From: Cereibacter sphaeroides
GTDB lineage: Bacteria; Pseudomonadota; Alphaproteobacteria; Rhodobacterales; Rhodobacteraceae
Length of the DNA stretch: 30,000 bases
Reading direction: 5' to 3'
Assembly: GCA_003243455.1 (NCBI GenBank)
Contig: QFQS01000013.1
Span: 2,348 to 32,347 of the forward strand
Part shown: positions 2,843-29,571 of the stretch, piece after piece
How the letters are laid out: each line of letters begins with the position of its first letter
How positions within the stretch are numbered: position 1 is the first letter of the stretch
The notes under the pieces: generated by a model
The model's database searches: none
The model's input: the letters and a program-made list of their open reading frames with translations, nothing else
Told to the model about the DNA's origin: nothing
Made by a program: the position numbers and the translations under genes

Positions 2843-3113
2843 ATGCTTTCCGTAATGCGTCGTTAGCGTTTGCCATCAGCTCGGCGATCTCGCGCTGCGT
2901 GGCCTTGTATGCCTCCTGGCCTGCGTACCACATGCGGAGGCGGTTGGTCAGGCACTGCGCGTTAAAGGCCAGTGTCTGCGCCTGGACCAGCATCAGGCGG
3001 CTAACTACGCGCGCTTTGTTTGCGCGGGCGAAGATTGTCCCCGGCTGGTCGCCCCAGTATTTGGCGCGGAGGTCTGCCAGTGTCTGGCCGTTTTTGTTGG
3101 TTGCTGTAGTCAT
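2832..3113 (-). CDS. Hypothetical protein (93 aa)
   Basis: I prefer the start MTTATNKNG, which has a GAGGAA RBS 7 nt upstream, over the upstream start at 3173 in the track. I recognise no motifs. Confidence 0.6.
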   Translation of the reverse strand: MTTATNKNGQTLADLRAKYWGDQPGTIFARANKARVVSRLMLVQAQTLAFNAQCLTNRLRMWYAGQEAYKATQREIAELMANANDALRKAYGR

Positions 3114-3144
3114 TTCGTTTTCCTCGCTGGTTGGTGTGAGAAAG

Positions 3145-3173
3145 AATATAACAAAGGATAAATGGGGCCGCAA
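3145..3173 (-). promoter_or_regulatory. Putative sigma70-type promoter for the small-gene sub-operon
   Basis: The minus strand reads TTGCGG-17 nt-TATATT. The -10/leader contains the 15-mer TATTCTTTCTCACAC (3134-3148), which recurs at 27273-27287. Confidence 0.4.
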
Positions 3174-3197
3174 GGATTATTTTAATTATTTCGTGAT

Positions 3198-3226
3198 AAA
3201 AGAGAAAAGGCCCCGGAGTGGGGCCT
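3198..3226 (-). terminator. Intrinsic terminator after the MTase-like gene
   Basis: The minus strand reads AGGCCCC-actcc-GGGGCCT followed by TTTTCTCTTTT, starting 5 nt after the TAG stop of the 245-aa gene. Confidence 0.7.
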
Positions 3227-3230
3227 GAGA

Positions 3231-3968
3231 CTAGCGGACGTTAGCGAGGAAGGTAGCGAGCGCGAAGCCCTCCGGGGTGGCGCTGCGTATGTTCTTTGTG
3301 CGGGTACTCGATCCGCCCAGCTTGGACCAGCCGGGATTATCTTTAGCCGCCGGGACTGGCTTCACCTCCGGCATAACGAAGCCGCCACCACACCAGATCC
3401 CGGTCTGCTTCGGATAGGCATCGCGCGCCGGGTAGATCTCCGGGTATAGGCGGTGCTGGTGGTCGTCCGGCAAGTAGCCGCCGTAATGGTACGGGTGAAA
3501 CCAATAATCACAGGGCCGCCACATCGTCGAGAGCCGGGAGATCTTCGGATTCTCCAGCATCCAGGGGACGGGCATCGAATCATCATAATGTCCGTTCTCA
3601 TAGGCGGCGAGGTCCGCCACCTCCTCCACCATGCGAGCCAGCGCGACGGCCTTGTGTTGGAAGTACGGATCCCGCGCCCGTTTCAGCTCCCACCAGCGCG
3701 CCCCGGTGCAAGTAAGGTCGGTACACTCGGCAAACGAGGCGACAAACTCAATACCTGCGCCGACCTCCTCGACGATGGTCAGCGCCTCGATCTCGGTGTG
3801 CTGCGCGTTAAACATGCGCCCGACGCGGATAAGGTTCGGCTCCTGCGGGTCTGGGTGGATCCCGTCCTCGTGCTGGCCGTCATACATCCAGCATTGATAG
3901 CCAGCCCGGAGCCACGGATCAACCATGATCCGCGTAAGGTTGAATAAGAAAATCGCCTTACGCGTCAT
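3231..3968 (-). CDS. Divergent DNA (cytosine-5) methyltransferase-like protein with degenerate motifs
   Basis: 245 aa. FAECTDLTCTGA resembles motif IV (PPCQxFSxAG), WMLENPKISRL resembles motif VI (ENV), and FLFNLTRIM..WLRAGY sits where motif I (LFxGxGG...AG) would be but lacks the glycines. A GAGG RBS precedes the ATG, which lies 1 nt after the upstream stop. Confidence 0.45.
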   Translation of the reverse strand: MTRKAIFLFNLTRIMVDPWLRAGYQCWMYDGQHEDGIHPDPQEPNLIRVGRMFNAQHTEIEALTIVEEVGAGIEFVASFAECTDLTCTGARWWELKRARDPYFQHKAVALARMVEEVADLAAYENGHYDDSMPVPWMLENPKISRLSTMWRPCDYWFHPYHYGGYLPDDHQHRLYPEIYPARDAYPKQTGIWCGGGFVMPEVKPVPAAKDNPGWSKLGGSSTRTKNIRSATPEGFALATFLANVR

Positions 3969-3969
3969 G

Positions 3970-4554
3970 TTACGGCCTCGCTGGCATAATGATCATCGTG
4001 GACGGTCCGAAAGGCGTCTTAAACTCGACGCGCATCGGCATGTTATTACCCGCGAAGTGGAGATCAACAAACGGCATCTTAATCCCGAATTTTTTCCCCA
4101 GCTTTTCGACGAGGCCCAGATATTCCGCCATCACCTTAACGTCCGTCACGGCTTTGGAGTTGTTCTTCGCGCTCTCGATCACGCGGCCCAGATCAGGATA
4201 ACGGGCGTCCACAATGTCCACGGTCCCGACGGCCAGACGCTGGCGGCGGAAGTCGAAGCCGTCCAGGTCCTGCGGCTTGTCGGCCATCTGCGCGCACCAG
4301 TACACGATCCCGGCTTCGGTATCGATCACGGCGGTGGAGTAGGCGCGCCCGGTCGGCGGCGTGGAGACATTCAGGATCAGGCCCTCCGCCGGGGCCTCGG
4401 TCAGCGCGGAGCGGGTGGAGAGCGCTACGTGGCCGTTAGACGTCTGGATCTCGTCGCCTTTGAAGTGTAAAGCGTTCAGGTAATACCGCACATCCTGGCG
4501 GCCTTTGGTGAGCTGGTGAGCGCGGAGCGCGTCAACGGGTGCATAGATGATCAT
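3970..4554 (-). CDS. Truncated DNA polymerase III beta sliding-clamp (DnaN)-like protein lacking domain I
   Basis: 194 aa. QDVRYYLN (aa 20-27, nt 4474-4497) is identical to the E. coli DnaN domain-II motif HQDVRYYLNGMLFE. SNGHVAL matches TDGHRLA, IVDARYPDLGRVI matches LVDGRFPDYRRVL, and the C-terminal MIIMPARP matches YVVMPMRL (all from memory). A GGGAGA RBS is present. Confidence 0.65.
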   Translation of the reverse strand: MIIYAPVDALRAHQLTKGRQDVRYYLNALHFKGDEIQTSNGHVALSTRSALTEAPAEGLILNVSTPPTGRAYSTAVIDTEAGIVYWCAQMADKPQDLDGFDFRRQRLAVGTVDIVDARYPDLGRVIESAKNNSKAVTDVKVMAEYLGLVEKLGKKFGIKMPFVDLHFAGNNMPMRVEFKTPFGPSTMIIMPARP

Positions 4555-4567
4555 CTTTGAGTCTCCC

Positions 4568-5269
4568 TTAAATCAGGCTTTTGCCTGCGTACATCATTTC
4601 GGTAAGCGTTACGTATTCCGTCTTGATCTCGCCACGCTTGCGGGGCTTGATCAGGAATAAGACGGACGACTTCGGATTTTTGCCGCCAGGCTCCCCGGTC
4701 ACGGCATCCACAAACGCCACGCGCCCGGACGTCTCGCCGTCGCTGGTGATATGGACGATCACGGAGGCATGATCCAGCGCTTTCTTAAACCAGGCCGTGG
4801 AGGCGTCGGAGTTGACGAGGAGGACCGTCGAGACGCTGCGCGTCTTTGCCTGCTCGATCGCTTTGGTCACAAACGGCATCGGCTCCGCGTATGGTGGGTT
4901 ACACCATGCCAGCCCGTTCTCCGCTCCCCATTGCACATCGTCCCGGAGCGCGTTCGTCTCCTCGTCCAGATAGCAGGCGCACAGGGCGTTAATCTTCTCG
5001 GCGGCCACGTCGATCCCAAACTCGCCGAAACGCTTACGCGCCCAGGCGAAAAGCCACTCCGGCGTCCGCCACTTCTGGCGCACTTTGTCCGGCGTCTTGC
5101 TGCCCTTGAAACGGCGACCGCTCACGCGGTTCTCGTCGTCGGCCATGATCTCGTTAGTCGCTTTCTGGCCGATGGCCGCGAGCTGGGTCATAACGCCGTG
5201 GGCCACGCCATGCTCCGCGCCTGCCTGCTCCAGCATTTCGATCGTGCTCTTGTCGTTCTCGTCTTTCAT
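4568..5269 (-). CDS. Phage Dam-family DNA N6-adenine methyltransferase
   Basis: 233 aa. It has WRTPEWLF..., the catalytic NPPY motif (WCNPPYAEP) and the ...RVAF... layout typical of the phage 'Dam' N6-A MTase family. An AAAGGA RBS is present. Confidence 0.85.
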   Translation of the reverse strand: MKDENDKSTIEMLEQAGAEHGVAHGVMTQLAAIGQKATNEIMADDENRVSGRRFKGSKTPDKVRQKWRTPEWLFAWARKRFGEFGIDVAAEKINALCACYLDEETNALRDDVQWGAENGLAWCNPPYAEPMPFVTKAIEQAKTRSVSTVLLVNSDASTAWFKKALDHASVIVHITSDGETSGRVAFVDAVTGEPGGKNPKSSVLFLIKPRKRGEIKTEYVTLTEMMYAGKSLI

Positions 5270-5299
5270 TGGATTATCCTTTGTTGGTGGATCGCAATT

Positions 5300-5328
5300 A
5301 ACATAATGGAAGCGTGATTTTATTTCAA
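5300..5328 (-). promoter_or_regulatory. Putative promoter of the MTase/clamp operon
   Basis: The minus strand reads TTGAAA-17 nt (TAAAATCACGCTTCCAT)-TATGTT. The spacer carries the recurrent ATCACG motif. Confidence 0.45.
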
Positions 5329-5408
5329 GAGGAAAATGTGATTTACTTGTGTTGTCTCTTTCCTTCGTCGGAAAAAATTAGCGCCCGCTGGTATCGGTCG
5401 CGCCCATT

Positions 5409-5434
5409 GGCCCCTCGTGCGGGGCCTTTTTTTT
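5409..5434 (+). terminator. Strong hairpin plus T8, oriented for the + strand, inside a minus-strand gene block
   Basis: GGCCCC-tcgtgc-GGGGCC followed by TTTTTTTT. On the minus strand the hairpin has an A tract before it and no U tract after it. The primase stop codon (5433-5435) lies in the T tract. Confidence 0.5.
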
Positions 5435-6245
5435 ACCCAAACGCGCCGCAATAGTCAGCGCCCCAGCAAGCCCTCCCCGTCCGATCGTGCCGATACATCC
5501 AGATCTCGTCCGGGTCAGTCGCCACCATGCGAAGCTCCCGATCGCCCTCATACTCCAGCGCCACCTCGACGGCATTACCCGGCGTAAACGTCAGCCAGAC
5601 CTCGGCCCCTGTCCGCGCGGCCACCTTTGCAGCATGGCCGGGATCGGCCACCAGATAAGCCGTCTTGCCCCCGGCGACTGGGTGGATCAGGCCGTAGGAT
5701 CCCCACGTAGGGCCACCAGCGGCAAACGTCACGGAACGGTCCGGCGCGACCTTCGCCACGTTGCAGGGCGATCCCCCCATCGCACGGAAGCACGGCACAT
5801 ACAGGAAGCCGCCGCGCATGGTCCCTTTACTCATGATCAGCTCGACCTCCTCCGGCTTGAGGCTCCAGTCCTCGCGGGGCCGCTGCTGCATGGCTGCGAA
5901 TTTCTTCGCCTCTTTGACGATGGTTTCCCGCTTCTCCGGGGTGAGTCCGCCGATCCAGTCGCCCAGGTCGTTGATCGCCTCGTTGAATGGCTGGTTACGG
6001 GAGGCCATAAACCAAAACATCCCATCACGCGCGCCGCCACACGAGCCGGAGCAATACGCGAAGCCGTCCCGGCGTTTTTCCTTGTCCTTGTGGCCCCAGC
6101 GAAAACGGTCGTTACCTCCACATATCGGGCATGGTTGATGCCGCCCCTTGAATATGGCGCGGTCCCAGCCGCACAGCTCGATCAGGACTTGCTCCCATTT
6201 GTCCGGCATGGCGGCCAGTACATCCTCTTTTTTATAAATTGCCAT
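5433..6245 (-). CDS. DNA primase-like protein (P4-type primase Zn-ribbon plus Toprim-like domain)
   Basis: 270 aa. It has the HQPCPICGGNDRFRW zinc-ribbon signature and a C-terminal YLVADPGHAAKVAARTGAEVWLTF Toprim-like segment. A GGAGG RBS is present. Confidence 0.75.
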   Translation of the reverse strand: MAIYKKEDVLAAMPDKWEQVLIELCGWDRAIFKGRHQPCPICGGNDRFRWGHKDKEKRRDGFAYCSGSCGGARDGMFWFMASRNQPFNEAINDLGDWIGGLTPEKRETIVKEAKKFAAMQQRPREDWSLKPEEVELIMSKGTMRGGFLYVPCFRAMGGSPCNVAKVAPDRSVTFAAGGPTWGSYGLIHPVAGGKTAYLVADPGHAAKVAARTGAEVWLTFTPGNAVEVALEYEGDRELRMVATDPDEIWMYRHDRTGRACWGADYCGAFG

Positions 6246-6313: not shown

Positions 6314-8368
6314 ATGGTAGAGACACTGGAGCGCCAGATAGCGGCGATCGACAAAGACGCCATACTCCGCGCGCTGGGCGACTTGCCCGTGACTCCATAC
6401 GATCATCAGTTCGTAGCGTATGAGGCTTGTCAGCAAGCGATCCGCAAATATCCCGGCCCGGTTATTGTCGATGCCGCCGTGTCTGCGGGTAAGACAATCA
6501 TGATCGCCATGCTGGCGCGCCGGATCCGCGATCTCGGCTATCCGGCCATGATCCTGTCTCGTCAGGCGGAGATCATCGATCAGGACCATGAGGAGCTGAA
6601 AAACTTCCAGGTGTGGTCCTCGATCTACTGCGCGGGCATCAATAACACGAAGTCGAACAAATTCCCGATCATCGTCGGCTCGGAGGGTACGGTGATCGGC
6701 GGCATTAAGCCAGGCGAAAAGCTGGCGAACTATGCGCCGCTGTTCCTGCTGATCGATGAATGCCATCACGTCAACATTGAGGACCTGATCCGCTCGGAAA
6801 ATCGCAAGGTCCCGGAGTACCTGGTGGAGAATGGGGCCTATGTGCTGGACGAGTTCGGCGAAAAGGTTCAGGTAGGGGAACACGTCGGAGAGACTTACGA
6901 AGAAATGATCGAGAGTGGCCGCGCCGCCTATACGATCATCATTCGCACGTTTCAGGAGCGATGCCGCCGCGTCCACGGTAAGGAGCTGCGGATCATCGGT
7001 TACACCGGGACGCCTTACCGGGGCTGCGAGTCCATCATCCAGCCGGACCTTAAGGAGCCGGGATTCTGGCGTAAGAAGGTATGCGAGATCTCTACGGAAT
7101 ACCTGGTAAGCGTCGGCGCTGTCGTCCCGACACGCTTCGGGATCTCCGATCTCCGGTACGACCTGAGCCAGTGGCGATCGACGGGCGAGGAGGGGATCAA
7201 GGAGTTTTCCGACGCTGATATGAAAGCGATGGAAGCCGCGATCCACAAGGACAAAAAGCTAACACAAAAAATCATGGCGGAAGTGTACGCCATCACCGAA
7301 AACCGTAATGGGGTGCTGGTGACGTGCGCCGGGGTCCGCCACTGTAAAGAGGCCGCCGCCGCGCTGCCGGAGGGGACGCCGTTCGCCATCATCACGGAGG
7401 ACACGACGCCGCGCAAACGCCGCGAGATCCTCAAAGATGCCAATACGGGCAAAATAAAATTCATCTTCCAGGTTAACGCGCTCACGACGGGCGTCAACGT
7501 GCCTTTCTGGGACACGTCGGTGATCCTGCGTAAGATTGGCTCCCTTACCCTGTTAACCCAGCTCTTAGGCCGTGGGATGCGTATTCTTAAGCCGTTCCAT
7601 CTGTCCGCCGGGTACACGAAAGAGGATCACCTGGTACTCGACTACGCCGGGACGCTCGACGAGCTGGGATCGTTGTACTTCTCCCCGCTGCTGGAGGCTT
7701 ACCAGCATAACGCCGACGAGAGCAAGGGTAAGCTGGTTCAGCGCTGCCCGAAATGTTACGCGGCTGGCCGCACGGTAATGAATGGCGAACATGCTCGCCG
7801 TTGCCGCTGGGTGGATCCTGATACGAAAATCCGATGTGACCACTTTTTCACGTTCATAACCTGCGACGACTGGAAGGACTCCAGCGGGAAGATCGTCACG
7901 CAAAAAGGCTGCGGCGCGAAAAATGACATTGTGGCCCGCATTTGCCGCTGCTGCGGGAATAGCCTCGTGGATCCGAATGAGAAGCTATCCCACACGGCAT
8001 ACAGCAAGGATGATTATTGCACGGTCAGCGATTTCAGGATCGAGCCAGCGCGAGGCCGTAATGGCAACGATACGGGCGGCGTGGCTTTCCGGTACGTTCT
8101 GGAGCGTGACGGCGTGGAGTTCATCGCGTGGCAAGTGTTCTGGCCGGGTAGCGATTCCCCCCAGGCGCGCAAGGAGTGGCTACATAACGCGGTCAATAAG
8201 CACGTACTGGACGGAAGCATGAGAAAACAGATCAAGGAGTGCCGGACGGTCGGCGCTGTCATGAGTTACGCCGGGTACTTTATGCGCCCGCTCAAAGTGA
8301 CTCACCGCAAGATCGGCAAGGGTAAAGACATTATTTCGAACAAAATTTTTCTGAATGAGGACTTTTAA
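6314..8368 (+). CDS. SF2 (DEAD/DEAH, type III restriction Res-like) helicase with a C-terminal multi-Cys zinc module
   Basis: 684 aa. It has Walker A DAAVSAGKT, Walker B/DExH LLIDECHH and helicase C-domain motifs (TTGVNVP, LLGRGMR). The C-terminus has CPKC...C..C and C...CRCCG clusters. Confidence 0.9.
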   Translation: MVETLERQIAAIDKDAILRALGDLPVTPYDHQFVAYEACQQAIRKYPGPVIVDAAVSAGKTIMIAMLARRIRDLGYPAMILSRQAEIIDQDHEELKNFQVWSSIYCAGINNTKSNKFPIIVGSEGTVIGGIKPGEKLANYAPLFLLIDECHHVNIEDLIRSENRKVPEYLVENGAYVLDEFGEKVQVGEHVGETYEEMIESGRAAYTIIIRTFQERCRRVHGKELRIIGYTGTPYRGCESIIQPDLKEPGFWRKKVCEISTEYLVSVGAVVPTRFGISDLRYDLSQWRSTGEEGIKEFSDADMKAMEAAIHKDKKLTQKIMAEVYAITENRNGVLVTCAGVRHCKEAAAALPEGTPFAIITEDTTPRKRREILKDANTGKIKFIFQVNALTTGVNVPFWDTSVILRKIGSLTLLTQLLGRGMRILKPFHLSAGYTKEDHLVLDYAGTLDELGSLYFSPLLEAYQHNADESKGKLVQRCPKCYAAGRTVMNGEHARRCRWVDPDTKIRCDHFFTFITCDDWKDSSGKIVTQKGCGAKNDIVARICRCCGNSLVDPNEKLSHTAYSKDDYCTVSDFRIEPARGRNGNDTGGVAFRYVLERDGVEFIAWQVFWPGSDSPQARKEWLHNAVNKHVLDGSMRKQIKECRTVGAVMSYAGYFMRPLKVTHRKIGKGKDIISNKIFLNEDF

Positions 8369-27336: not shown

Positions 27337-29571
27337 TTATTGCGCGGCACGTTCCAGGGTGCTGTCGGCCTGCTGCTGCGCCTGGCGCTCGGCCAGTTGC
27401 TGCGCTGCGCGGTCGCTCTGGATCTGGTGGCCCTGCCCGATGGATTTCAGGAACAAGTCGGCCTGTTTGTGCGCGTCCTGGCTCTGGGCGGTGACGTACT
27501 TCTGGAGGATAGCCACGGCGGCCATTAGCTGATCCTGCGGGATAGCTGCGGCCTCGGCCATCGTCTTGACGGTCTGCGCCTGCTTGAGCTGGCCGTCTGC
27601 CTGCGTCCCCTGCGCCTTGAGCTGCAATTCTAAGCGCTTGTTGTCCTGCTCCATAACGGCGGCCTTGCCCTGGTCTGCCACGCCCTGCGCTGCGACCATC
27701 TGCGCGTCCGGCTGGTCCTGCTGGCTCTGCTGGGCCTGCGCTACCATCTGTTTTTCCTCGTCCGTCTGCGGCTTCACAATGCCGGAGAGTAAAAGCTGGT
27801 TGCGGGTGTACTCTTTGAAGTCCTGGAGGCCCTCGCCGTCCATGTTCGCAATGATCAGGCTCATGACGATCGTCGCGTTAGGGTCGCCCGGTTGCATGGT
27901 CGCTAACAGGTTAGTCAGGCTGCGGACGGTCTGCTGGCGTCGCGTCTGGGAGGACTCGCCGACGTCGGCAACAATTTCATATTTGCCGCGCTTGAGGTCG
28001 TTAATCGCGATCACTTCCTTCGTCTCGCGATCGACGACTTTCCCGGTCATTAACACGAGGTCGTCGCTCCCGTCCTCCTGCTGGATCCTCACGTAAGACT
28101 CGGAGCCGTAAACCTTGCGAGCGGCGGACAGGTAGACGCGGCCACAATGGCGCAACGTCTTAGCCAGGTTGTCCATGTAGAGCGCGCCCTGGCCGTCCAT
28201 GCGGGCGAAAATAGCCTCCACGGTTTCGGTCGCCAGGTTAGACGGCAGCGCTTCGAGCTGGGAGGATCCGACAATCTGCTGGATAGTCGCCCCGGTGTAC
28301 TGGAGGACGGCAGCGAGCGCCGGAGAGAGCGGAGTCGCCGGAGTATAGCCCAGCGGTCCGGCCTGCTGGACGACCTCACCAGACGCATTACGGAGCGATT
28401 TAGCGGGCAGGTATGCGGGGCGCTTCGTGTTGCGATCCCCCCAGGCGTTGGCGAGATTCCCAGGGATCATGTCGATATCCATGATCGGGATGTTGTCGCC
28501 GCCTGCCTGCGCGGCCTGGTCGGCCATCATGGACACGATCAGGTTTTCAAGACGCTGGGCGTCCATCGCGAGCGTGGCGTGGCCCATCACGCGCTCCTGG
28601 TTGTCGATAAACGAGCGGCGCGCGTTGAAGATAAAGACCGGGATCCATTCGAACGGGATCAGCTTCGGCTCCTCGATCCACTCCCCGCCGGAAAACAGGC
28701 CGCAATAGACCTTACGACGTTTGACGCGGCGATCCTTGAGCTTTTTCCAGCCTGCGGCCTTAAGCTCGTCGAAAACCTGCTCCATGTCGTCCTCGTCGTA
28801 TACCTCCGTTTCCCCGGTGAGCGGGTTCTGGTAGGAGATCACGGTGGTGTCCTCGATCTTCACCTCATAGTAACGGGCGATATAAATCGCGTCTTTAGAG
28901 GCCCAGTCAAACCATTTGCCCGTGTTCAGCTCCATGAGGTCCTCCGGGGCCATCGCGTCCGGGTAACGCTCCTCGTACTTCTCCGGGGTCATGCTGAATA
29001 GCTCGGCCATCCACATAGCATCACTGCGATCGTACATTTTGGAGTCAGGATCGACAAAGAGGCACGAGGCCGGATCGTAGATCGGGTAAAAGACGATATG
29101 ACGCTCCTCATTGTCGGGATCAAATTCGTCCTCCAGCTCCGTGTCCATGCGAAACGCGCCCATCCCGCCGTCGATGCCGTCGCCGTAAGTGTTATCGACG
29201 GACTCCGGCCCGTTGCTCTCGTTGTAGTCGGCGCGGAATTTGCCGTTTAGCTTGTCGGCCAGCTCCTCGGATGCCTTTTCGTCCTTCGGACGGAATACCA
29301 CGGAGACACGGTTAAGGCGGTAATCGGTGATCAGGCGGTCGCACTCGCGGGCCACTTTGTTAAGTTCGAATCGAGGGTATTTCTCGAATCGTTCATCATC
29401 CATCGCAAAGCCGGAGTTAGTTGATCCTTCCCACTGCGCGCCCGGAATACGGACAAAGCGCTGGGTTTCGATCATTTTCTTGCGGCTTTGCTCCTCGCTG
29501 GCGATCGTCTGGCTCAGGCGCTTACGCGCCGTCTCATGCCAGTTCTGGGCCGATTTGGTGACTCGTGCCAT
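27337..29571 (-). CDS. Portal protein (P22 gp1-like, with a long C-terminal helical barrel)
   Basis: 744 aa. IARYYEVKIEDTTVISYQNPLTGETEVY...LKDRRVKRRKVY matches P22 [28 protein letters not shown]...IAERQIKRRRVY. The C-terminal GIVKPQTDEEKQMVAQAQQSQQDQPDAQMVAAQGV matches [36 protein letters not shown] (from memory). A GGAGA RBS is present. Confidence 0.95.
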   Translation of the reverse strand: MARVTKSAQNWHETARKRLSQTIASEEQSRKKMIETQRFVRIPGAQWEGSTNSGFAMDDERFEKYPRFELNKVARECDRLITDYRLNRVSVVFRPKDEKASEELADKLNGKFRADYNESNGPESVDNTYGDGIDGGMGAFRMDTELEDEFDPDNEERHIVFYPIYDPASCLFVDPDSKMYDRSDAMWMAELFSMTPEKYEERYPDAMAPEDLMELNTGKWFDWASKDAIYIARYYEVKIEDTTVISYQNPLTGETEVYDEDDMEQVFDELKAAGWKKLKDRRVKRRKVYCGLFSGGEWIEEPKLIPFEWIPVFIFNARRSFIDNQERVMGHATLAMDAQRLENLIVSMMADQAAQAGGDNIPIMDIDMIPGNLANAWGDRNTKRPAYLPAKSLRNASGEVVQQAGPLGYTPATPLSPALAAVLQYTGATIQQIVGSSQLEALPSNLATETVEAIFARMDGQGALYMDNLAKTLRHCGRVYLSAARKVYGSESYVRIQQEDGSDDLVLMTGKVVDRETKEVIAINDLKRGKYEIVADVGESSQTRRQQTVRSLTNLLATMQPGDPNATIVMSLIIANMDGEGLQDFKEYTRNQLLLSGIVKPQTDEEKQMVAQAQQSQQDQPDAQMVAAQGVADQGKAAVMEQDNKRLELQLKAQGTQADGQLKQAQTVKTMAEAAAIPQDQLMAAVAILQKYVTAQSQDAHKQADLFLKSIGQGHQIQSDRAAQQLAERQAQQQADSTLERAAQ

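Follow-up and report, generated by a model that had tools for sequence, protein, structure and literature searches.

Why should a phage place a gene for a clamp-like protein between two genes for DNA methyltransferases (MTases)? This question is raised by positions 3231-5269 of the window analysed here, that is, the whole 30,000-nucleotide stretch of contig QFQS01000013.1. An earlier note on this DNA proposed that the clamp-like protein, a truncated homologue of the bacterial beta sliding clamp (DnaN), could tether the two enzymes to phage DNA. We find that the middle gene encodes a beta-clamp homologue, hereafter called the mini-clamp, whose domain architecture, conserved peptide-binding pocket and distribution among phages point to a fragment that would bind peptides rather than close a canonical ring, and that the tethering proposal is not supported.

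The DNA of the window closely resembles that of Klebsiella phage vB_KpnS_IME279 and of Escherichia phage sortkaff (genus Sortsnevirus, with P22-like podovirus morphology), with 97-98% nucleotide identity to them over window positions 3100-5450 (97.8% for IME279). The three tightly packed open reading frames (ORFs) agree exactly with those described before, in their coordinates as well as in the gaps of 13 nt between genes 1 and 2 (4555-4567) and 1 nt between genes 2 and 3 (3969):

4568-5269, minus strand: gene 1, phage Dam-family N6-adenine MTase, ORF of 233 aa
3970-4554, minus strand: gene 2, mini beta-clamp, ORF of 194 aa
3231-3968, minus strand: gene 3, compact phage Dcm-family C5-cytosine-MTase-like protein, ORF of 245 aa

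Homology, architecture and binding pocket of the mini-clamp

A Pfam search of gene 2 at E<=1 returned nothing except a spurious match to DUF3012, with no DnaN domain at threshold, and the score against TIGR00663 was 10.4 bits, where the cutoff is 137.65. In a phmmer search of PDB sequences the matches were weak and consisted of beta clamps only, through the segment QDVRYYLN; the C-terminus IIMPARP is similar to the beta tail VVMPMRL. The AlphaFold2 (AF2) model, which was built on 16 homologues, has a predicted local distance difference test score (pLDDT) of 86, and its best Foldseek matches in the PDB are all DnaN (probability 1.0, E ~7e-4, template-modelling (TM) score 0.43-0.56), followed by PCNA, 9-1-1 and UL44. 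When an alignment of 68 mini-clamp family members was compared with a DnaN alignment by hhalign, the probability was 99.8% (E 2e-29), and mini-clamp residues 1-194 covered E. coli beta 126-366 except for one large deletion, that of beta 256-311. The family hidden Markov model also finds E. coli DnaN at 2e-23, and many members of the family carry PF02767. The 194-aa truncated clamp homologue of the earlier note is thereby confirmed, and gene 2 encodes a true beta-clamp homologue comprising domain II and the C-terminal beta-alpha-beta-beta-beta half of domain III, without domain I. When the family profile was run against 1.84 billion representative proteins, it yielded 3125 mini-clamp clusters at E<=1e-3, and the best 150 of the 3125 are nearly all 170-215 aa in length.

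Both PHROG (phrog_3007) and RefSeq label gene 2 as a ‘RusA-like Holliday junction resolvase’. The phrog_3007 label, copied by RefSeq records, is what speaks for a resolvase; however, there is no RusA Pfam match, all of the fold matches are sliding clamps, the hhalign comparison leads to DnaN, and other depositors call the homologues beta-clamp or Pol III beta. We regard the chance that gene 2 is a resolvase as practically nil, and its RusA identity as refuted by the Pfam, Foldseek and hhalign evidence. The misannotation has spread to many of the 217 phage records that contain the mini-clamp family.

Compared with E. coli DnaN (PDB 1MMI/2POL), the mini-clamp retains the domain-II fold, the interdomain connector D-G/A-R-F/Y-P-D-x-x-R-V, the GFN-x-x-Y-L helix and the C-terminal V-V-M-P-x-R tail. 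It differs in its length of 194 rather than 366 aa, in the loss of domain I and of the first half of domain III (beta 256-311), and in being basic, not acidic (the median isoelectric point of the family is 8.6). The beta dimer-interface residues are I78, F106, R103, I272, L273, E298 and E304 (review PMC11139829), and all seven fall in the parts that gene 2 lacks, namely domain I or beta 256-311. In addition, the second domain-II helix, one of the two helices that line the channel, is not predicted in the AF2 model (pLDDT ~90). Because domain I and the dimer-interface segment are missing, formation of a canonical ring is unlikely. Measured as a sliding clamp, gene 2 falls short of three domains (~366 aa), of a dimer interface and of the family score cutoffs, while it has the homology and the pocket.

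This pocket, which in beta receives the clamp-binding motif (CBM), is composed of 18 residues in subsites I and II (review PMC11139829), and all 18 positions align in gene 2 at the sequence level. Gene 2 is identical to E. coli beta at 11 of the 18 pocket positions as compared with 24 of 157 other positions (Fisher p = 5.6e-5), and the majority residue of the family equals that of E. coli beta at 15/18 positions in the pocket versus 39/157 elsewhere. Likewise, the mean conservation within the family is 0.73 in the pocket and 0.36 elsewhere (p = 4e-7), and the most conserved columns, in E. coli numbering, are R152, G174, M362, P242, Y154, P363, L155, H175 and R365. In the numbering of gene 2 itself, the pocket includes R23, L26, H42, P120 and M190. 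From these features we infer that gene 2 encodes a ‘pocket-only’ clamp fragment, which would bind CBM-like peptides without canonical ring closure.

If the mini-clamp cannot close the canonical ring, then it may be asked whether it closes another one and thus serves host Pol III, or the family-A polymerase (PolA) of a phage, as a genuine sliding clamp. It is possible to imagine four protomers of 1.5 domains that provide six domain-equivalents, with half-domains paired across two-fold axes, and the pseudo-symmetry of clamp half-domains would make such B:B' pairing geometrically conceivable. The basic character of the family agrees with this idea, as do the position of the mini-clamp directly downstream of PolA in loci L077 and L087 and the trimeric clamp reported for E. 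coli beta*, described below. Several points argue against it: domain II is predicted to have lost one of its two channel-lining helices, the annotation of IME279 contains no phage clamp loader and the host loader engages full beta, and many of the carriers encode no polymerase themselves. We therefore consider a non-canonical ring unlikely, and retain the pocket-only fragment as the preferred description.

A shortened clamp has also been described in E. coli itself. In 1996, Skaliter, Paz-Elizur and Livneh reportedly found beta*, a UV-inducible internal translation product of dnaN that contains domains II and III (~26 kDa) and is said to act as a trimeric clamp. The mini-clamp is similar to beta* in its N-terminal truncation and nearly identical start (M135 in beta*; the mini-clamp aligns from beta ~126-137), but beta* keeps the whole of domain III together with the interface residues, whereas the mini-clamp lacks half of domain III and constitutes an independent, diverged gene family. 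We also considered three ‘two-domain’ clamps of 236-241 aa (P0379, P0380 and P0382) as phage intermediates and rejected them; they show ~43-60% identity to residues 130-366 of E. coli DnaN, start near the internal Met135 and probably represent either pieces of DnaN or internal ORF calls of the beta* type.

The flanking methyltransferase genes and their transcription

Gene 1 matches PF05869 (Dam) at E 1.6e-46 (158.5 bits versus a cutoff of 28.1), TIGR01712 at 124.4 bits (cutoff 97.05) and phrog_111, and is classified by PADLOC as an orphan MTase. The catalytic NPPY, on which its first identification as a Dam-type enzyme was based, lies within ‘AWCNPPYAEP’, and an N-terminal extension of ~55 aa stands ahead of the Pfam domain. 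The Pfam match bears out that identification, and gene 1 encodes an ordinary phage N6-adenine methyltransferase. The richness of this DNA in GATC, noticed before, was also reproduced: the 30-kb window contains 347 GATC sites versus 109 expected from base composition (3.2-fold) and 235 expected from a Markov model. This excess fits a GATC-specific Dam but is no proof of it, as it bears on specificity indirectly. Among other words, CTAG is nearly missing from the window (5 versus 109 by composition and 25 by the Markov model), and CCWGG is mildly under-represented (113 versus 161 by the Markov model).

Gene 3 had no Pfam match at E<=1 and no PDB sequence match. It matches phrog_757 over residues 2-243 (E 1.4e-65) and has at least 418 homologues, which are named ‘Dcm methylase’ in databases; its tblastn matches include Tls dcm and the EmilHeitz ‘Dcm-like C5 cytosine methyltransferase’, among others. 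The invariant elements of the family are F-L-F in strand 1, D30, (P/A)-E-C82-T, E139-N-P, R151, K187 and R-S-x-T-P-x-G-F, and their order is that of the C5-MTase motifs I, II, IV, VI, VIII and X. In gene 3 itself these take the form of FAEC82 (IV), E139-N-P (VI), R151, K187 and RSATPEGF (X-like). The AF2 model (pLDDT 93) has DNMT1 as its best Foldseek match in the PDB (probability 1.0, E 6e-4, TM 0.40), followed by DNMT3A/3L, DIM2 and 3g7u; a prophage DNA MTase is included, and the TM-scores are moderate. In the viral structure library BFVD the matches are phage ‘DNA-cytosine methylases’, and the compact Dcm fold was also observed there fused to helicase/UvrB-like domains in two proteins of uncultured Caudovirales (A0A6J5SE15, 1397 aa, and A0A6J5NPY6, 1126 aa). 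A route by sequence from the gene 3 family to PF00145 or the PDB was tried and was not significant: hhalign against a PF00145 protein gave a probability of 0.1%, pairing FPEC with TPCQ and ENP with ENV. The link of gene 3 to C5-MTases thus rests on the fold, the motifs and a characterised homologue.

This homologue is the 711-bp Dcm-like gene of a T1-like phage (K42/KarlJaspers), which makes 5-methylcytosine at CCWGG, methylates when expressed alone in E. coli and triggers the retron Ec86 (Eco1), and for which the catalytic mutant is C82A/E128A/K175A/K176A (bioRxiv 10.1101/2023.08.16.553469). The 711-bp homologue of gene 3 in the T1-like phage BabyEgg has exactly C82 (FPPC), E128 (ENP) and K175-K176, so that, judging from gene length, residue numbering and product name, the K42/KarlJaspers Dcm would belong to the gene 3 family. 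Gene 3 is like the K42-type Dcm of the Drexlerviridae in its phrog_757 membership (38-40% identity to T1-like members), in Cys82, the ENP glutamate and the DAY-x-K lysine, in its similar size and in having no separate target recognition domain (TRD). It is unlike the T1-like enzymes in an 11-aa insertion ahead of ENP, in motif IV (FAEC for FPPC) and in motif I, which is FLFNLTRIM, without glycines, where they have LFDGSG; across the family this motif is F-N-L-T-R in gene 3, F-D-x-T-G in close homologues and F-D-G-S-G in T1-like members.

With the classical C5-MTases (PF00145; M.HhaI, Dcm and the DNMT1 catalytic domain) gene 3 shares the Rossmann-type MTase fold, and its Cys (IV), ENV-like (VI), Arg (VIII) and motif X-like elements come in the same order as theirs. 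Unlike them, it is 80-150 aa shorter and has neither a recognisable TRD nor an FxGxG motif I, and in its family the invariant Cys follows Glu (A/P-E-C), not Pro, with ENP in place of ENV. Gene 3 is thus a member of a large compact phage Dcm family and keeps the predicted catalytic Cys, Glu and Lys, although its activity is uncertain because of FAEC for FPPC and the glycine-less motif I. The earlier label, ‘degenerate C5-MTase-like’, was therefore right about the fold, which resembles DNMT1 and DNMT3A, and partly apt in ‘degenerate’ as regards motif I and FAEC, but it does not do justice to a compact Dcm family that has a validated member.

The following signals were found around the three genes:

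3226-3208, T-run to ~3198, minus strand: intrinsic terminator hairpin, AGGCCCCACTCCGGGGCCT with the tail TTTCTCTTTT
5328-5300, minus strand: candidate sigma-70 promoter TTGAAA-17-TATGTT, 9/12 consensus positions
5409-5426, no strand assigned: G+C-rich hairpin GGCCCCGCACGAGGGGCC with A8/T8 flanks, a terminator-like site detected on the plus strand

The intrinsic terminator noted previously is a canonical one, since the hairpin has a 7-bp stem with G-C in 6 of 7 pairs and a 5-nt loop, is followed by a T-run and lies 4 nt past the gene 3 stop. The promoter noted with it is present, 31 nt upstream of the gene 1 ATG, and is kept in the relatives IME279 and L003; however, it is a weak match to the consensus, and promoter-like matches are not above chance (2 found versus 1.4 expected in shuffled sequence). 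It is well placed, and its function is plausible but unproven. The G+C-rich hairpin has the primase stop (5433) on one side and the candidate promoter on the other, with its sequence also kept in IME279 and L003. It is possibly a bidirectional or partial terminator, which may insulate the three-gene unit only in part, so that transcripts started at the promoter of the primase gene may conceivably run on into the unit. GGAG/GAGG Shine-Dalgarno-like sequences precede genes 2 and 3. The ratio of nonsynonymous to synonymous substitution rates relative to orthologues is 0.19-0.35 across all three genes (0.19-0.27 for gene 1), which indicates purifying selection. It is plausible, though unproven, that the three genes constitute one transcription unit.

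Among the proteins encoded by the phage are a primase (5433-6245), a helicase (6314-8368), RecE/Erf, a single-stranded DNA-binding protein and a RepA-like ATPase. Neither a polymerase nor a clamp loader is annotated in the complete genome of its relative IME279, in agreement with what had been reported for the window. Having no polymerase of its own, the phage must use host Pol III. No match to defence systems was found for genes 2 and 3 with PADLOC.

Gene context and the tethering proposal

We tallied the neighbours of the mini-clamp at 89 loci, clustered at 50% identity into 22 lineages, using MTase seeds that cover part of the MTase families. The co-occurrence of the three families across phages, named in the earlier note as a check on its proposal, proved to be narrow: the trio is found in 3 of the 22 clusters, all of which belong to a Sortsnevirus-related clade (relatives of Murrayvirus, Skarprettervirus and Giessenvirus). 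In this clade, the gene that immediately precedes the mini-clamp is Dam in 12/12 loci, and a Dcm-like gene lies downstream in 11/12, sometimes past small inserted ORFs, and the arrangement holds down to ~40% clamp identity. Some other MTase occurs within 3 kb in three singleton lineages and at locus L060 (one of the 56 loci of the largest cluster), and 15 of the 22 lineages have no MTase within 3 kb by the seeds used. Adjacency to an MTase as a general trait of the mini-clamp family is thus rejected by this clustering. Both methylase families mostly occur without the mini-clamp, which was found in 217 phage records as compared with 1488 for the compact Dcm family.

Some variation was observed within the clade. 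In a Murrayvirus-like contig (L008 6001-7500), no Dcm-like gene was seen in the ~6 kb downstream of the clamp. In Skarpretter-type phages (L082 4595-5063 and L010 6585-7025), small ORFs stand between the clamp and the Dcm-like gene, and one of these is a 78-aa ORF annotated as ‘putative Dcm methylase’. Outside the clade, the 245-aa neighbour of the mini-clamp in Vibrio phage XM1 was tested as a candidate Dcm-like protein and is not Dcm-like. The other contexts of the mini-clamp are as follows:

Hafnia phage yong1: cII - clamp - O - P
Serratia phage Eta: ParB - clamp - helicase, near primase
L077 and L087: mini-clamp immediately after a family-A polymerase
L060 and L079: mini-clamp near a family-A polymerase
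Klebsiella and Salmonella prophages: Rha - clamp - ... - integrase, early-left operon
T1-like phages: mini-clamp without informative neighbours

In unrelated temperate elements (L077 1933-4579, L087 1929-4579 and L060 3168-7754), the mini-clamp is directly downstream of PolA and also beside an SNF2 helicase, sometimes with a PF00145 C5 methylase, and PolA and the mini-clamp may constitute a pair there. In the Klebsiella and Salmonella prophages, by position outside the replication module, it lies between a Rha-family gene and the integrase and near a ParE-like gene (L096-L098 5001-5558 and L014-type loci).

We can now return to the proposal that the clamp encircles or tracks along phage DNA and gives processivity to the Dam and Dcm-like enzymes in the manner of PCNA and Dnmt1. 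In eukaryotes, Dnmt1 binds ring-shaped PCNA through its PCNA-interacting peptide (PIP) box. The present locus is like that system in that it encodes and co-expresses DNA methyltransferases with a protein of the clamp family, and several observations favour a working relationship: the conserved order of the three genes in the clade, despite clamp identities down to ~40%; the spacing of 13 nt and 1 nt, which suggests translational coupling; the presence of unrelated mini-clamps near other MTases at L060 and L077 (both C5), in Vibrio phage XM1 (N6) and at L019; and the benefit that fast methylation would bring to a GATC-dense genome. However, occasional adjacency of this kind is expected, because MTases are common in phage replication modules. 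The locus is also unlike PCNA-Dnmt1 in three respects, namely that neither the Dam nor the Dcm-like protein has a CBM (Q-phi-x-[LM]-(x)-[FL]) or a PIP-like motif, that the clamp fragment has neither the canonical ring-closing interface nor domain I nor the second domain-II helix, and that the association is not family-wide. Tethering is therefore unsupported, because the trio is limited to one clade, the families are decoupled, the K42 Dcm is active when expressed alone, and both the CBMs and the ring interface are missing; we consider it very unlikely. A lineage-specific link between the mini-clamp and Dam may nevertheless exist in the Sortsnevirus-related clade.

Possible roles of the mini-clamp

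If the methylases are not the partners of the mini-clamp, then what does it bind? The reading that we hold, with moderate confidence, is an operon of three independently acting DNA-metabolism proteins in which the mini-clamp would be a non-ring CBM-binding adaptor or decoy. The operon is an early one of a Sortsnevirus-type podophage, and its three products would be co-expressed and most likely act independently. The Dam-family enzyme would methylate adenine, presumably within GATC, in a genome that carries three times as many of these sites as expected, the compact Dcm-family enzyme would attack cytosine C5 via Cys82, Glu139 and Lys187, and both would mark or protect the phage DNA. The mini-clamp would bind the CBM-type peptide of a replication or repair protein, for which the candidates are host Pol III alpha, epsilon and delta, Hda, MutS/L and the translesion synthesis polymerases, or phage PolA in the phages that have one. 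As an adaptor it would recruit CBM factors to phage DNA or to the phage replisome; as a decoy it would divert them from phage DNA or act against the host clamp network. Whereas homology, domain architecture, pocket conservation and distribution are shown by the data, we infer peptide binding, oligomeric state, the partner and the way in which the effect would run.

Several points weigh against this reading. Searched for a canonical CBM, the primase, the helicase and the MTases of the phage gave none, and no partner emerged from them. The pocket residues are the most conserved residues of beta clamps in general and, because of this, anchor the alignment, and their conservation could in part reflect fold stability. 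A ring of non-canonical form, such as a D2 tetramer built from 1.5-domain units, would also go against it. The strict adjacency of Dam and the mini-clamp (12/12), across a clade in which the clamp itself diverges so far, is compatible with a lineage-specific functional link, and for gene 3, whose motif I has no glycines, MTase activity is not assured.

The CBM search covered all ORFs of the window with the pattern given above. Two CBM-like matches in structural genes, QAALL and QADLF, were dismissed, as ~4 are expected by chance; QADLF(L), at residue 703 of 744 in a portal-like ORF (27337-29571, minus strand), resembles the QADMF of Pol III alpha, probably by coincidence. Similarly, an N-terminal QLELF in one of three PolA genes that adjoin mini-clamps was dismissed, since it is not conserved and lies in an ExoI strand.

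Could the mini-clamp be a pure decoy, an inhibitor that titrates CBM-bearing host proteins away from host beta? It would then be aimed at such candidates as Pol III alpha/epsilon, delta, Hda, MutS/MutL and Pol II/IV/V, and the effect would be a shut-off of host replication, a block of mismatch repair at hemimethylated GATC or a blunting of defence. This is close to the alternative that accompanied the tethering proposal, in which the protein subverts the host beta-clamp network and which is a better fit to the conserved peptide-binding pocket. The retention of the pocket while ring parts were lost is what would be expected of a decoy, and many Klebsiella and Salmonella prophages place the gene in the early-left accessory operon by Rha and the integrase, the usual site of host-modulating genes.

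The clamp hub is also a known target of other phages. Staphylococcal phages, for instance, make clamp-binding polypeptides. In phage Mu, MuC-beta is used for late transcription (PMC12867686), and in phage T4, gp45 takes part in late transcription (PMC2988020). The mini-clamp is like these strategies in that a phage manipulates the clamp interaction hub, but they employ small clamp-binding proteins or full ring clamps, whereas the present phage carries a gene for part of the hub itself. On the other hand, elsewhere the mini-clamp gene lies inside the core replication module (cII-clamp-O-P, ParB-clamp-helicase and PolA-clamp), and indiscriminate sequestration would be self-harming, because a polymerase-less phage needs Pol III. 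A role as decoy and nothing else thus seems rather doubtful to us, and we keep to the broader reading of a CBM-binding adaptor or decoy.

A more general proposal can be offered only tentatively. More than 3000 clusters may encode a pocket-only hub fragment that binds CBMs without a ring, either capturing Pol III or other CBM proteins (Hda, MutS/L and translesion polymerases) for the primase-helicase of phages without a polymerase or disarming the host clamp network. In the Sortsnevirus-related clade the fragment may in addition be coupled to Dam, for example by keeping MutHLS off a GATC-dense genome.

The existence of the mini-clamp gene is not new, because databases label relatives as ‘beta clamp domain-containing protein’ or ‘DNA polymerase III beta subunit’; our literature search found no functional or structural study of phage mini-clamps. 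The present analysis corrects the annotation of phrog_3007 from ‘RusA-like Holliday junction resolvase’ to a beta-clamp fragment. It also places gene 3 in the family that triggers retron Ec86/Eco1, so that Sortsnevirus-type phages may be Eco1-sensitive if their copy is active on CCWGG. An early operon with two methylases is ordinary, and the interest of the locus comes from how broad the mini-clamp family is and from its pocket-only architecture. Bacterial replication and repair have the beta clamp as their central hub, which is also an antibiotic target. If confirmed, a pocket-only mini-clamp would be a natural minimal scaffold with which to study or inhibit CBM interactions, and such a fragment of the hub would represent a new viral route to hijack or blunt host replication.

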